A DNA stretch of 64,000 nt. It comes from Candidatus Omnitrophota bacterium (GTDB lineage Bacteria > Omnitrophota > Omnitrophia > Omnitrophales > Aquincolibacteriaceae). The notes beneath the pieces are model-generated. The model saw nothing but the letters and a program-made list of their open reading frames with translations, was not told where the DNA came from and searched no databases. Within the stretch, counting starts at the first letter, position 1; every line of letters starts with the position of its first letter. Below are positions 33,410 to 37,503 of the stretch, in pieces. Location of the stretch: contig CAIOAT010000042.1 in NCBI GenBank assembly GCA_903856085.1, positions 4,947 through 68,946 on the forward strand, written 5' to 3'. Position numbers and translations under genes: made by a program.

Positions 33410-33483
33410 TCGGGGCGATAGGATTCGAACCTACGGCCTCTCGGTCCCGAACCGAGCGCACTACCAGGCTGTGCTACGCCCCG
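33410..33483 (-). tRNA. tRNA-Pro (anticodon CGG)
   Basis: CGGGGCG-TA-GCAC-AGCCTGGTA-GTGC-G-CTCGG-TTCGGGA-CCGAG-AGGCC-GTAGG-TTCGAAT-CCTAT-CGCCCCG-A; canonical cloverleaf; CCA not encoded. Confidence 0.85.
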
Positions 33484-33667
33484 ATCAACTCTTTTAAAAT
33501 TCCTAATAAAGACCAAAACTGCACTGATAAACCTTTAACTCTTAACGAGAATCAGTACGCTCCGATGAAACTTATTCTAAAAATTCACCGAAGATAATCT
33601 CGATGAATCTACGGAGGCAAAGCGCGCGGATTATATCACCCTCATGAAGAGTATTCAATCAAAGGCA

Positions 33668-35423
33668 TTAATCATCGACCGCAAGATCTGCGGTCGCGGC
33701 CACCTGCTCTGGAGTAGGTGGGGGTGTGATTTCATGATGAGGCTGTGAGCCTTGGGTCAAAAGCGCCGCTTCCATGACCTCCTTGAACACAGGGGGCGGC
33801 AACCGTACCCCCATAATAGAGAGGCCGTGCTTCGTCCAGCACGACCACCATGGCATAACGAGGATTGTCGGCAGGAGCAAATCCCACAAAAGAAGACATG
33901 AAAGCAGAGTGAGAATAGCCTTTACCTCCGGGAAGGATCTTCTGAGCTGTACCGGTCTTCCCCCCGACCAGCACATCTGGAATCTTTGCCTTGGTCCCCG
34001 TTCCCCTTTCGACCACTTGTGTCAGAATTTCACGCATCGTCGCAGCCGTTTCGGGCTTGATCACCCTCTGCCGGATCAAAGGTTTCTTCTCTTTGATGGT
34101 CACACCTGCCGGATCCTGGATCTTGGAAACAATGTAAGGTTTTACAAGATAGCCGCCATTAGCAATCACGGACATTGCAGTCACCATTTGTAACGACGTC
34201 ACCATAACCTCTTGTCCCATGGGAATATTGTAAGGAGAAGTCTTGGACCATTGAGCCAACGGCCTCGTATACCCCGGTGCTTCTCCGGCCAAATCAATTC
34301 CGGTCGTGCCCCCGAATCCGAAACTTTTTACATAGCTTTGAAATTTCTGGGAGCCCATTTTGAGCGCGATCTTCACAGTCCCGATATTGCTCGATTTCAC
34401 GATCACTTCCATCATCGGCAGCATCCCATAGGGGTGAACATCGTGCAGCACCTTGAAGCCATAATTCCACTTACCATTCTCGCAATTGATGACCGTCTCC
34501 GGCGTCACGGTCCCATCGTTCAAGGCACCGCTCGCCGCTACGATCTTGAACACCGAACCCGGTTCATACATATCGGTGATCGCACGATTGCGCTTCGCAT
34601 CCGGCCCCGCATTGGCGTAATGATTGGGATCAAACCCGGGCTGATTGGCCATCGCCAGGATCTCACCGGTCTTGGGATCCATCACAATCGCCCAAGCGCC
34701 TTTGGCTTTCCACTGTTTAAAAGCCTGTTCAAGTGCTTTTTCCGTCAGATACTGGAGATGCTGATCGATGGTCAATACAACACGGTTTCCGTCGATCACA
34801 GGCAAGCTTTTAATTTCGAAAGCCTTGATCTCTCGTCCTTTGGCATCACGCTGGGTCACACGCTTGCCGGGTTTCCCGCGAAGATCGCCATCCAAGGATC
34901 GCTCGATCCCCTCCACTCCCTGATTGTCTACAGTGGAAAATCCAAGCACCTGAGCAAGCATCGTTCCTTGGGGATAGAACCGCTTGTATTCTTCCAAAAT
35001 ACCCAGCTCGGGACACTCGAGCTTCTTGATCTTTTCAGACTCCTCAAAAGTGACGCGCCGCTTGATCCATACGAACGATTTATCCCGACTCAATCGTTCC
35101 GTCACCCACTTCCGGTCAAGCCCCAAGATGTTCGCAATCTCACGGCTGAGGTCTGCACGGTCCTCGTCCTTCAAGGCGCGCGGTATCGCGTAGATGGAGG
35201 GGATCTTGAGATTGGCGACAAACTCTTTCCCATTACGATCCGTAATAGGACCTCGCATGGGAGATACATCGATCGTCAAATAGTGTTGGCGATGCGCCAG
35301 AGCAAGAAGTGAAGACTGATGGAGCCAGGTCAGCTGAAGGATTTGATAAATAACGAGACAAAAAAGAACGAGCAGAACGATATAGAGGAACCAGAACCGA
35401 CGCGGCGAAAGCAACGCACGCAT
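33668..35423 (-). CDS. ftsI: peptidoglycan D,D-transpeptidase FtsI (PBP3), with an apparent +1 frameshift in a G5 homopolymer at 33792..33796
   Basis: Frame A (33732..35423) ends ...YYGGTVAAPCVQGG*; frame B (33668..33976) continues ...PPPVFKEVMEAALLTQG, the conserved PBP C-terminus. Dropping one C/G in the run gives the expected VAAPVFKEVMEAAL. Confidence 0.8.
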
Positions 35424-35426
35424 TTT

Positions 35427-35819
35427 TTAGGAGGAGAGATCGGTCTTGGCCTGGGCCGTTTGAATCCACCGGCCAAGAAAACTCGTAACCTCGGAAGAAA
35501 AAGTACGCGCGACCTTTTGTTCCGATGTCGCGGGAATAACAAGCTCGGAGACGGGTGGAACTTCCACCACCTGGATCTTGTTAGGAAGCGCCAAACCCAT
35601 ATCGTGACGTTTCATTTTTTCTTCAAGAAGGCGGGGGGCCCTCAACTGGTCGACCTTGAACTGGAATCTTCGGAGCAGTTCTTGCTTTTCGGCAAAAGCA
35701 CGCGAGCTCTTTTGTATATCAAATGAGACTAAAACGGAGGAGACCTGAAGATGCACATAAAAAAGCATCGAGCAGGTCAGAGTCGCTATCAGAATTAATA
35801 TTTTTCCGCTGCCTCTCAT
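35427..35819 (-). CDS. ftsL: cell division protein FtsL
   Basis: Bitopic membrane protein with a short coiled coil between rsmH and ftsI. Confidence 0.55.
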   Translation of the reverse strand: MRGSGKILILIATLTCSMLFYVHLQVSSVLVSFDIQKSSRAFAEKQELLRRFQFKVDQLRAPRLLEEKMKRHDMGLALPNKIQVVEVPPVSELVIPATSEQKVARTFSSEVTSFLGRWIQTAQAKTDLSS

Positions 35820-36724
35820 GATGTTTTCTCGATCACTCTCAGTTTGGCGCTTCTCGCTCTTGGATTATTCAATATTTCAGAACGGTTTGCAACCATTGGT
35901 TTGCGAAAAATTAAATTCCCACGTTCTTCGTCGTCCCATTTCCGGAACTGTTGTTTCACAATCCGGTCCTCAACCGAATGAAAGCTGATAATGCCAAGCC
36001 GTCCGGCTTTCTTCAGATGCTCAAACGCGACCGTCATGCCTTCCTTGAGCGCCTCTAGCTCATCATTCACCCCTATCCGGAGAGCTTGAAACACTTTAGT
36101 CGCCGGATGACGCCGCGCCCATGAAGGTCTTTGCCCTTTCTTGAATCGCATATGGGGGGGCAGCGCCTGTTCCAATGCCTGGTTGAGATCTTCGATAGTC
36201 TGGATGGGTTGTTGGCGCCGCCTTTCGACGATCACGCGGGCAAAACGCCGTGATTTGTGCTCTTCTCCGTAGTGATAAAAAAGATCCGCCAGCTCAACCT
36301 CGGACATTTGAGCAAGCAGCTCTGAGGCTTTAAGACCGACTTCCGGGTTCATCCGCATATCCAATTCCCCTTCCGTTTGGAAACTGAAACCGCGCTTCCC
36401 ATCCGCCAACTGTTCCGACGACGTCCCGATATCCAATAGCACCGCATCGAATGCTGCTACTTCCAATCCCGAAAAGACCTTCTTCAAATTCCTGAAGTTC
36501 TCGTGTACCAACGTAACCCGCGGATCTCCTCGAAACAACATCTGACATCTTGCGATTGCTTCAGGGTCCTGATCAAATCCGATCAATTTCCCCGAGGGAC
36601 CTATTTTCTCGAGAATCGCCTCCGAGTGCCCCCCACTCCCGAGCGTCCCATCCATCACCACAGCACCGGGTCTTAACGCTAAATGCTCAAGGACTTCTTG
36701 TAAAAGAACGGGCTTATGACGCAA
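35816..36724 (-). CDS. rsmH: 16S rRNA (cytosine1402-N4)-methyltransferase
   Basis: HKPVLLQEVL...VMDGTLGSGGHS...GIISFHSVEDRIVK MraW motifs. Confidence 0.9.
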   Translation of the reverse strand: MRHKPVLLQEVLEHLALRPGAVVMDGTLGSGGHSEAILEKIGPSGKLIGFDQDPEAIARCQMLFRGDPRVTLVHENFRNLKKVFSGLEVAAFDAVLLDIGTSSEQLADGKRGFSFQTEGELDMRMNPEVGLKASELLAQMSEVELADLFYHYGEEHKSRRFARVIVERRRQQPIQTIEDLNQALEQALPPHMRFKKGQRPSWARRHPATKVFQALRIGVNDELEALKEGMTVAFEHLKKAGRLGIISFHSVEDRIVKQQFRKWDDEERGNLIFRKPMVANRSEILNNPRARSAKLRVIEKTS

Positions 36725-37052
36725 AACTAAGAATCGCCTCTTCTTCCGTCGAATAACTTTCCATCAAACCATTGACCCCGATCATCTGGAGGGTCCTTTC
36801 TACTTCAGGACGCAAGTTGCACAATTTGATGTCCCCTTTTTGTTCGCGCACCTTACGCAAGCGGTCCACCAAAATACCAACACCCGCCAATTCCACATGT
36901 TTCGTATCTTTCAGATCCAGCAAAAGACGCTTGTGGTTCCTGTTGAGCAAACGGTTCATACGACCTTTCATTTTGATCATGCTAAGAGCGTCGAGATCTC
37001 CGTTGAAACGCAACACGTCCACTCCAACCTTCGTCCTGGCGTGATAGACCAT
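36714..37052 (-). CDS. STAS-domain protein (anti-sigma-factor antagonist-like) inserted between mraZ and rsmH
   Basis: SpoIIAA-like fold: LRFNGDLDALSMIKMKG...LLLDLKDTKHVELAGVGILV. Confidence 0.65.
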   Translation of the reverse strand: MVYHARTKVGVDVLRFNGDLDALSMIKMKGRMNRLLNRNHKRLLLDLKDTKHVELAGVGILVDRLRKVREQKGDIKLCNLRPEVERTLQMIGVNGLMESYSTEEEAILSFAS

Positions 37053-37065
37053 AATGGCTCCTTTT

Positions 37066-37503
37066 CTATTCCGATGCTAATTTTTCTGCGAGTTCTTCAA
37101 AATGGTTCTTATGATGATCAAAAAAGCCCTGCCATTTTTCTTTCGCCCAAATTTCAATACGACTTGATACACCGACGATCATGACCTCCGCCTTAATGTC
37201 GGCATAGGTCTTGAGATAATCCGGGATGAGAATCCTCCCCTGCTTGTCGCAAACAACTTCCGAAGCGCCCGAGAAAAAAAGCCGATTGAAGGTTCTGGAT
37301 TCGGCTTTAGTGAAAGGCATATCGCGAAACTTTTTTTCTTCCGTCTTCCATTGTTCTTCTGTGAAGACAAACAAGCATTGATCAAGACCGCGTGTAATGA
37401 AGAATCGTTCCACGTAACGTTCCTTGAAGATCTCTCGGAACTTGGCGGGGATCATCACGCGACTTTTTGTATCGATCACATGTTCGAATTCACCGTAAAA
37501 CAT
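37066..37503 (-). CDS. mraZ: transcriptional regulator MraZ
   Basis: Tandem MraZ/SpoVT-AbrB-like domains (MFYGEFEHVIDTKSRVMIPAKFRE...). Confidence 0.9.
   Translation of the reverse strand: MFYGEFEHVIDTKSRVMIPAKFREIFKERYVERFFITRGLDQCLFVFTEEQWKTEEKKFRDMPFTKAESRTFNRLFFSGASEVVCDKQGRILIPDYLKTYADIKAEVMIVGVSSRIEIWAKEKWQGFFDHHKNHFEELAEKLASE

Follow-up and report, generated by a model that had tools for sequence, protein, structure and literature searches.

A serine-less STAS-domain gene between mraZ and rsmH in the shortened dcw cluster head of an Omnitrophota clade

A gene for a small STAS-domain protein was found between mraZ and rsmH, in the head of the cluster of division and cell wall genes (dcw), in a 64-kb stretch of DNA (the window) from a Candidatus Omnitrophota bacterium (GCA_903856085.1). 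An earlier note on this DNA had described an atypical dcw head, mraZ-STAS-rsmH-ftsL-ftsI, and all of these genes, ftsL as an ftsL-like ORF without a family match, were found at the coordinates that it gave, on the minus strand. Its statement that the cluster stops at tRNA-Pro(CGG) and a Cys-rich open reading frame (ORF), and not at mur or fts genes, was confirmed by Pfam and tRNA calls. The STAS protein of the dcw head (dcw STAS) lacks the serine at which classical proteins of this fold are phosphorylated. As a fact of the genome, the arrangement is well supported. As to its function, we favor, with some reserve, a phosphorylation-independent STAS binding module that would act by stoichiometric binding, its amount being set by the MraZ-controlled promoter.

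The acceptor position was analyzed by alignment with SpoIIAA. Ser58 of SpoIIAA aligned to Leu55 of the window protein, and Leu55 was invariant in 28 homologs of 67-100% identity. Of 42 dcw-embedded copies, 40 had Leu at the acceptor position, one had Phe, and one had Val, the next residue being Ala, and none of the 42 had Ser or Thr in the acceptor loop. The dcw STAS was flanked by mraZ and rsmH in every locus and had no GHKL kinase or PP2C phosphatase gene as a neighbor. A review of the family states that every characterised single-domain STAS protein is regulated at a conserved serine (PMC8256260).

The charge of the protein was also unusual. The isoelectric point (pI) of the window dcw STAS was 9.6, the family median was 9.69 (range 8.8-11.1), and the net charge of helix alpha-1 was +5 to +8 across the family. 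In contrast, the STAS proteins used for comparison were acidic: the pI was 5.9 for SpoIIAA, 5.1 for a STAS protein encoded beside a kinase gene elsewhere in the window, and presumably 4.9 for RsbV. Among the nearest 50%-identity representatives, those with a hydrophobic acceptor site were mostly basic, whereas those that kept Ser were acidic. This reversal of charge (pI 9.7 versus about 5), as calculated from the sequences, argues for an altered interface in which the classical docking surface would be changed.

The fold itself was retained. The AlphaFold2 model of dcw STAS, with a predicted local distance difference test (pLDDT) score of 79.7, had the canonical beta-beta-alpha-beta-alpha-beta-alpha-beta-alpha topology, and its top Foldseek match was SpoIIAA in the SpoIIAB complex, with a template modeling (TM) score of 0.86. 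The protein narrowly passed the model for the anti-sigma-antagonist superfamily, TIGR00377 (58.6 bits; cutoff 53.45), but failed the SpoIIAA equivalog model TIGR02886 (56.0 bits; cutoff 114.75) and the MlaB model NF033618 (17.3 bits; cutoff 90). Because the fold is used without the Ser switch and the charge is reversed, the label 'anti-sigma factor antagonist' probably misdescribes this family. In profile searches of a representative library, the best matches after the family itself were giant multi-domain proteins (P0137, P0125, P0127, P0129, and P0130). One type, HATPase_c_2-HAMP-SpoIIE(PP2C)-HTH-3×STAS, carries a whole partner-switching module in one chain, and the other combines tandem STAS domains (three stretches by Pfam, four by profile search) with a Ser/Thr protein kinase and ankyrin repeats. 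The STAS domains of the giant chains P0125, P0127, and P0129 keep Ser.

The distribution of the gene was then determined. The dcw STAS protein had 207 homologs, and its homologs are named in their sources as Omnitrophota/Omnitrophica proteins; the 120 listed were all at least 67% identical, and nearly all were 111-112 amino acids (aa) long. Relatives at 79% and 71% STAS identity had the same mraZ-STAS-rsmH-ftsL-ftsI order with other genes after ftsI. A scan with MraZ as the query, using one genome per species, gave 80 Omnitrophota loci with MraZ identities from 99% to 60%, and the set scored consisted of 65 MraZ-seeded species-representative loci with enough flank. In 35 of the 65 loci, STAS lay between mraZ and rsmH and no Mur ligase followed ftsI. 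The remaining 30 had no STAS gene, mraZ and rsmH were adjacent or nearly so, and murE came directly after ftsI. A mixed state was found in none of the 65 loci. The identity of murE, of murF, and of the three most divergent STAS copies was confirmed by a Pfam check. The STAS gene was present in all 41 scorable species loci of the STAS clade, with its length and motifs conserved. The gap between mraZ and rsmH was about 30 nt in 28 Omnitrophota loci without STAS, while the window has a 339-nt STAS gene at this place.

In a neighbor-joining tree of MraZ, RsmH, and FtsI (72 taxa, 950 columns), the STAS-bearing loci formed one bipartition with a bootstrap of 100/100. Since these loci form one clade, the gain of STAS and the break after ftsI map to one branch. 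A complete canonical cluster, from mraZ through ftsQ or ftsA, was present in other Omnitrophota (loci L095 and L097) and in locus L089, which makes the arrangement in the window a derived one. The synteny of the window also held in its relatives, as the gene order was conserved across the whole STAS clade and ended near tRNA-Pro. Of 29 STAS-clade loci scanned, 24 had a tRNA-Pro(CGG) gene at 0.2-2.5 kb downstream of ftsI, in comparison with 0 of 9 loci without STAS, and this tRNA gene is a conserved marker of the place where the dcw cluster breaks off. A CdsZ-like gene preceded mraZ in 37 of 39 STAS-clade loci but in only 1 of 36 others, and most Omnitrophota without STAS had ribF or another gene in its place. 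As a third clade-exclusive feature, however, the CdsZ-like gene was weakened by L089 (4615-5364), where it stands upstream of a dcw cluster that is complete and STAS-less, separated from mraZ by an RNase H gene.

The STAS gene was under strong constraint. The median pairwise ratio of nonsynonymous to synonymous substitution rates (dN/dS) was 0.024 for mraZ, 0.035 for STAS, 0.054 for ftsI, 0.095 for rsmH, and 0.132 for ftsL, which places STAS second in the operon after mraZ. In 38 of 39 loci, conservation of the STAS protein exceeded that of RsmH and FtsI. By every sequence criterion the STAS gene is functional, and these ratios indicate strong purifying selection. Fixation in the dcw head for the whole history of the clade, together with a constraint greater than that on ftsI, hints strongly at a genuine role in division or envelope growth.

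The expression signals of the operon, on which the earlier note is silent, were examined upstream of mraZ. The three-box operator pattern had a single match in the window, where 0.15 matches were expected by chance, and it occurred exactly once per locus across 82 loci, always just upstream of mraZ. The promoter hexamers were visibly kept upstream of mraZ in most of the loci compared, and the Pmra promoter and MraZ boxes looked alike in Omnitrophota with and without the STAS gene. Further MraZ operators, which could point to operons regulated in trans, were absent from the window. The STAS gene had its own GGAG ribosome-binding site, 13 nt past the mraZ stop, and its last 11 nt overlapped the TTG start of rsmH; by tblastn coordinates, its 3' end overlapped or abutted the rsmH start in most STAS-clade loci.

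From this arrangement, dcw STAS would be made as an operon member from a promoter with a canonical three-box MraZ operator. If toggling by a kinase and a phosphatase is impossible, as the acceptor site suggests, its activity would depend on its amount, that is, on the output of Pmra and MraZ, and the protein would work by binding a partner stoichiometrically, in step with MraZ, RsmH, FtsL, and FtsI. By analogy with known antagonists, the partner could possibly be a GHKL anti-sigma-type protein, toward which dcw STAS would be an antagonist that cannot be inactivated, with RsfA of M. tuberculosis as the precedent; phosphorylation-independent binding to a protein of the RsbW-like kinase type is possible. 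RsmH, the 30S subunit, or nucleic acid is a doubtful candidate, to which the rsmH overlap, the basic helix alpha-1, and a second RsmH paralog point. MraZ itself would be an unlikely partner, and something else takes the remaining share. The gain of STAS together with the break of the cluster fits a compensation in trans for lost co-transcription.

Several points weigh against a phosphorylation-independent binding module. The mechanism is predicted from the sequence and a model, and we give it only somewhat better than even credence. The link between STAS gain and cluster break comes from a single branch; it counts as one event and not as 65 independent ones, and has no statistical weight as an association. 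The precedent for a GHKL partner is weak, because 58.6 bits barely passes the superfamily cutoff of 53.45 and the SpoIIAA equivalog fails (56 against 114.75), and the reversed charge speaks for a change in the classical docking surface. A residue other than the canonical one, such as Thr50 of the window protein, could be phosphorylated; position 50 is Thr or Ala across the family and so is not conserved. Finally, overlapping genes can reflect genome compaction and not the formation of a complex.

Other roles for the protein were weighed against the binding module. The first is that of an accessory factor, which would bind 16S rRNA, the 30S subunit, or RsmH itself and adjust C1402 methylation or the choice of target. 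The stop/start overlap with rsmH that recurs in relatives and the strongly basic, conserved helix alpha-1 of a protein with a pI near 9.7 are consistent with it, and so is the relatively fast evolution of the dcw rsmH in the STAS clade (dN/dS 0.095). The genome also has a second RsmH paralog, so that the dcw copy could have specialised. This second RsmH-family gene (354 aa; L087:12479-13543) lies on the same contig, about 2.5 kb beyond window position 1 and outside a dcw context, and is followed by an 83-aa ORF; its product passed TIGR00006 (212 bits; cutoff 154) and was 37% identical to the dcw RsmH. However, binding to RNA or to an rRNA methyltransferase is not known for any STAS protein (PMC8256260), RsmH is itself basic (pI 9.3), and gene overlaps are common in compact genomes. 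We regard an RsmH-accessory role as unlikely.

A broader proposal, which is speculative and rather improbable, is that the Ser-less basic STAS proteins are a new functional class, recruited when the dcw cluster split, that reports the activity of Pmra and MraZ in trans by its amount. It would either sequester a regulator and thereby hold the relocated murE…ftsZ genes, or some other regulon, in line with the head operon, or serve RsmH as a nucleic-acid- or ribosome-binding cofactor. If true, this would add to bacterial division a layer of regulation not known before, in an uncultured phylum.

Alternatively, dcw STAS could bind MraZ or its operator complex and tune the autorepression of Pmra as an anti-repressor or a co-repressor. 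The STAS gene is directly downstream of mraZ under the same operator, the two proteins are the most constrained of the operon, and a mildly acidic MraZ (pI 6.45) faces a basic STAS. On the other hand, MraZ, the promoter, and the operator look alike with and without STAS, and no change in MraZ accompanies the gain. To our knowledge, there is also no precedent for a STAS protein that modulates MraZ, and we judge this role quite improbable.

The earlier note had proposed a partner-switching antagonist coupled to an RsbW-type kinase at about 55.9 kb. The kinase is real (HATPase_c_2, 1e-28), but the coupling did not survive: the note had named loss of the phosphorylatable residue as refuting, and the acceptor Ser is absent in all copies. 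In this proposal, dcw STAS would be a classical SpoIIAA/RsbV-type anti-anti-sigma factor, phosphorylated by the kinase at 55907-56389 and coupling the division genes to a partner-switching cascade. It has in its favor the STAS fold, membership in the TIGR00377 superfamily, and the presence of an RsbW-like HATPase_c_2 kinase in the same window. This kinase, however, was the nearest one to dcw STAS, 19 kb away, and was paired with a canonical STAS gene immediately downstream (55546-55890; TIGR00377, 94.9 bits), which the earlier note had overlooked. As the adjacent STAS carries the canonical MDSSG motif, the kinase has its own cognate substrate. No similarity between the two STAS proteins of the window was detectable by BLASTP, and their recent paralogy was ruled out for lack of an alignment. 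With Leu, Phe, or Val in place of the acceptor Ser in every copy, a basic protein where classical antagonists are acidic, and no kinase or PP2C phosphatase gene beside it either in the window or in the 12 related loci for which genes were called, dcw STAS is not a canonical kinase substrate, so the phospho-switch model fails and a classical antagonist is very improbable. The kinase-STAS pair is located directly upstream of, and co-oriented with, mlaE-mlaF-mlaD (53246-55520), and another assembly (L088) has the same order; it is unusual for an Mla lipid-transport operon to be headed by a partner-switching pair.

That STAS is a neutral passenger or annotation artefact, landed in an essential operon by rearrangement, or an MlaB-like accessory of an ABC transporter, is hardly credible: the junction tolerates insertions, as an unrelated ORF of about 58 aa occupies it in four further Omnitrophota lineages, and the window holds an mla operon, but the STAS dN/dS of 0.035 is below that of ftsI and rsmH, the gene is kept with its length and motifs in all 41 scorable species loci and in 207 homologs (120 listed at 67% identity or more), the MlaB model gave 17 bits against a cutoff of 90, and dcw STAS is outside the mla operon, upstream of which stands the other STAS gene. 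The ORFs of about 58 aa were seen in the mraZ-rsmH junction of the STAS-less loci L049 (~6460-6640), L061 (~6455-6640), L062 (~835-1015), and L075 (~6465-6640), with their own ribosome-binding site and a loose shared motif, 'IE.IRK.R.LN'. As four STAS-less lineages hold such an ORF, this junction seems to have taken in small genes more than once. STAS remnants in these gaps of about 200 nt were rejected, since a maximum-sensitivity hmmsearch with the family profile gave only noise (best 7.4 bits).

Table 1. Positions of the dcw head, its signals, and related features in the window.
Feature	Position	Strand	Evidence and remarks
Pmra-like sigma-70 promoter	37567..37595	minus	TTGACA-17-TATACT, matches 11/12
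MraZ operator, three (A)GTGG(G/T) boxes with 10-nt spacing, between promoter and mraZ	37528..37551	minus	
mraZ, 145 aa	37066..37503	minus	Pfam MraZ 1.9e-35; TIGR00242 138 bits (cutoff 98)
dcw-embedded STAS gene, 112 aa	36714..37052	minus	PF01740 1.3e-16
rsmH (mraW), 302 aa, TTG start	35816..36724	minus	Methyltransf_5 3e-97; TIGR00006 315 bits
ftsL-like ORF, 130 aa	35427..35819	minus	position, size, and sequence; no Pfam or NCBIfam match
ftsI (class B penicillin-binding protein)	open frame 33732..35423; intact frame would end at 33668	minus	PBP_dimer and Transpeptidase
tRNA-Pro(CGG)	33409..33483	minus	promoter-like site of its own at 33630-33658
DUF6485 Cys-rich mini-ORF, 66 aa	33178..33378	minus	Pfam DUF6485 4.5e-09
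CdsZ/CT398-like coiled-coil zinc-ribbon gene	37765..38520	minus	CT398_CC and Zn_ribbon_9; NF047363 81.7 bits, well under the cutoff of 275
RsbW-like kinase, HATPase_c_2	55907..56389	minus	1e-28
Canonical STAS gene adjoining the RsbW-like kinase, 114 aa	55546..55890	minus	motif 'VDYMDSSG'; pI 5.1

The coordinates are collected in Table 1. The ftsL-like ORF encodes a hydrophobic N-terminal segment followed by a charged, heptad-like stretch, as in a bitopic protein, and an ORF of 119-130 aa was present in the ftsL position at every locus inspected. The ftsI gene of the window had a 1-nt insertion, a run of five C (minus strand) at about 33792-33796 where L001, L008, and L009 have four in the DNA alignment. 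The insertion shifts the frame of the last ~40 codons, and the conserved C-terminus 'APVFKEVMEAAL…' continues in the ORF at 33668-33976. L001 is of the same species as the window, and its ftsI was called as 584 aa, the length expected for an intact window gene. The frameshift may stem from a sequencing error in the homopolymer, or else the variant is real and truncates the gene.

On the two sides of the operon, the CdsZ-like gene is a separate transcription unit directly upstream of Pmra, and the DUF6485 mini-ORF is a neighbor outside the operon that follows the tRNA in only some relatives (17 of 39 STAS-clade loci). Downstream of the DUF6485 ORF were genes for an SDR protein, a SpoU methylase, an acylphosphatase, a metallophosphatase, and ligA. 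The region between ftsI and tRNA-Pro(CGG) was variable in L003, L005, and the matching regions of L030-L044. L003 (11245-15541) held HSDR_N- and N6_N4_Mtase/RAMA-type genes there, which are restriction-modification-like, and L005 (11332-13726) and relatives held a glutathione synthetase and GCS2 pair; the breakpoint after ftsI may be an insertion hotspot. A ligA…xerC-type recombinase block was upstream of ribF-mraZ in STAS-less Omnitrophota (L095:1-2354; L097:1-1994), whereas in the window (26402-30743) it came downstream of both ftsI and tRNA-Pro, its orientation unchanged. This difference in position suggests that the mraZ-ftsI head was translocated relative to the block. Farther upstream of mraZ, a gene for a ParA/MinD-type ATPase fused to a C-terminal CBM48/AMPK glycogen-binding module was present at 39902-41002, and by tblastn it was upstream of mraZ in 29 of 39 STAS-clade loci; the space from this gene to the CdsZ-like gene was usually occupied by an ORF corresponding to 39090-39902 (29 of 39 loci).

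In the window, ftsI was followed by no mur or fts genes. The murE…ftsZ genes of the STAS clade were not located; none lay in the 10 kb beyond either window end. A MurE homolog search, a comparison with known MurE, and four context look-ups all led to lineages with complete canonical clusters. These genes probably exist in the STAS clade, because the window encodes a complete MreBCD-PBP2-RodA elongasome and ftsI, and dcw genes are reported to be generally conserved in Ca. Omnitrophota by a PVC-wide survey (PMC12283558). That survey also links divergent division modes to cluster fragmentation. The aroA-mreB-mreC-mreD-PBP2-rodA cluster (window 3701-10549) ended at tRNA-Pro(TGG). With ftsI ending at tRNA-Pro(CGG), both class B penicillin-binding protein operons of the window thus end at a tRNA-Pro gene. 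A reading of the gene beside mreB as murA was rejected; it is aroA (TIGR01356, 414 bits), and the murA model was far under its cutoff. At the end of the window, an ORF of 2083 aa without a Pfam domain (61666-63999, cut by the window end; L088:3689-9940) was located beside a Band_7 gene and downstream of integrase and HTH_17 genes.

The dcw head is among the most conserved bacterial gene orders. The gain of STAS, the loss of the ftsI-murE linkage, and tRNA-Pro at the breakpoint together give a clean genomic marker for a major Omnitrophota clade, and dcw STAS is a defined candidate for studies of how the coordination of division genes persists once the cluster has been split. The literature searched, to which the main dcw survey (Megrian et al. 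2022) does not belong, contained no description of a dcw-embedded STAS gene, of STAS in Omnitrophota, or of the clade-specific break, and an earlier mention in that survey is possible; the study of PMC12283558 mentions neither a STAS insertion nor a clade-specific break after ftsI.

Among known systems, SpoIIAA and RsbV (TIGR00377; PDB 1TH8, 1AUZ, 6M36) resemble dcw STAS in fold and size (TM 0.86; phmmer 2.5e-09 to 1AUZ), and two turns are conserved, GDL ahead of helix alpha-1 and G-x-G where helix alpha-2 starts. In contrast, dcw STAS has Leu, Phe, or Val for Ser, is basic, has no kinase or phosphatase gene nearby, lies inside the dcw head operon, and fails the equivalog cutoff. Phosphorylation-independent STAS proteins do exist: RsfA of Mycobacterium tuberculosis is a redox-regulated antagonist of the anti-sigma-F factor UsfX, and MlaB is the STAS partner of the MlaF ATPase and binds it without phosphorylation. 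Both are STAS-only proteins that bind a partner without phosphorylation, and by analogy this is the functional class proposed for dcw STAS. Unlike RsfA, dcw STAS has no Cys pair, its single Cys78 not being invariant, and its context is dcw and not sigma-F or mla. In comparison with the canonical dcw cluster of E. coli, L089, L095, and L097 (mraZ-rsmH-ftsL-ftsI-murE-murF-mraY-murD-ftsW-murG-murC-murB-ddl-ftsQ-ftsA-ftsZ), the window shares the leader and the order and orientation of mraZ, rsmH, ftsL, and ftsI, but has an extra gene between mraZ and rsmH and ends after ftsI, where tRNA-Pro and unrelated genes follow. The fragmented dcw clusters of the PVC superphylum (Planctomycetota, Chlamydiota; PMC12283558) are similar in being broken clusters of a PVC-related lineage; the window differs from them in that its elongasome and ftsI are intact, with no sign of a loss of peptidoglycan or FtsZ.

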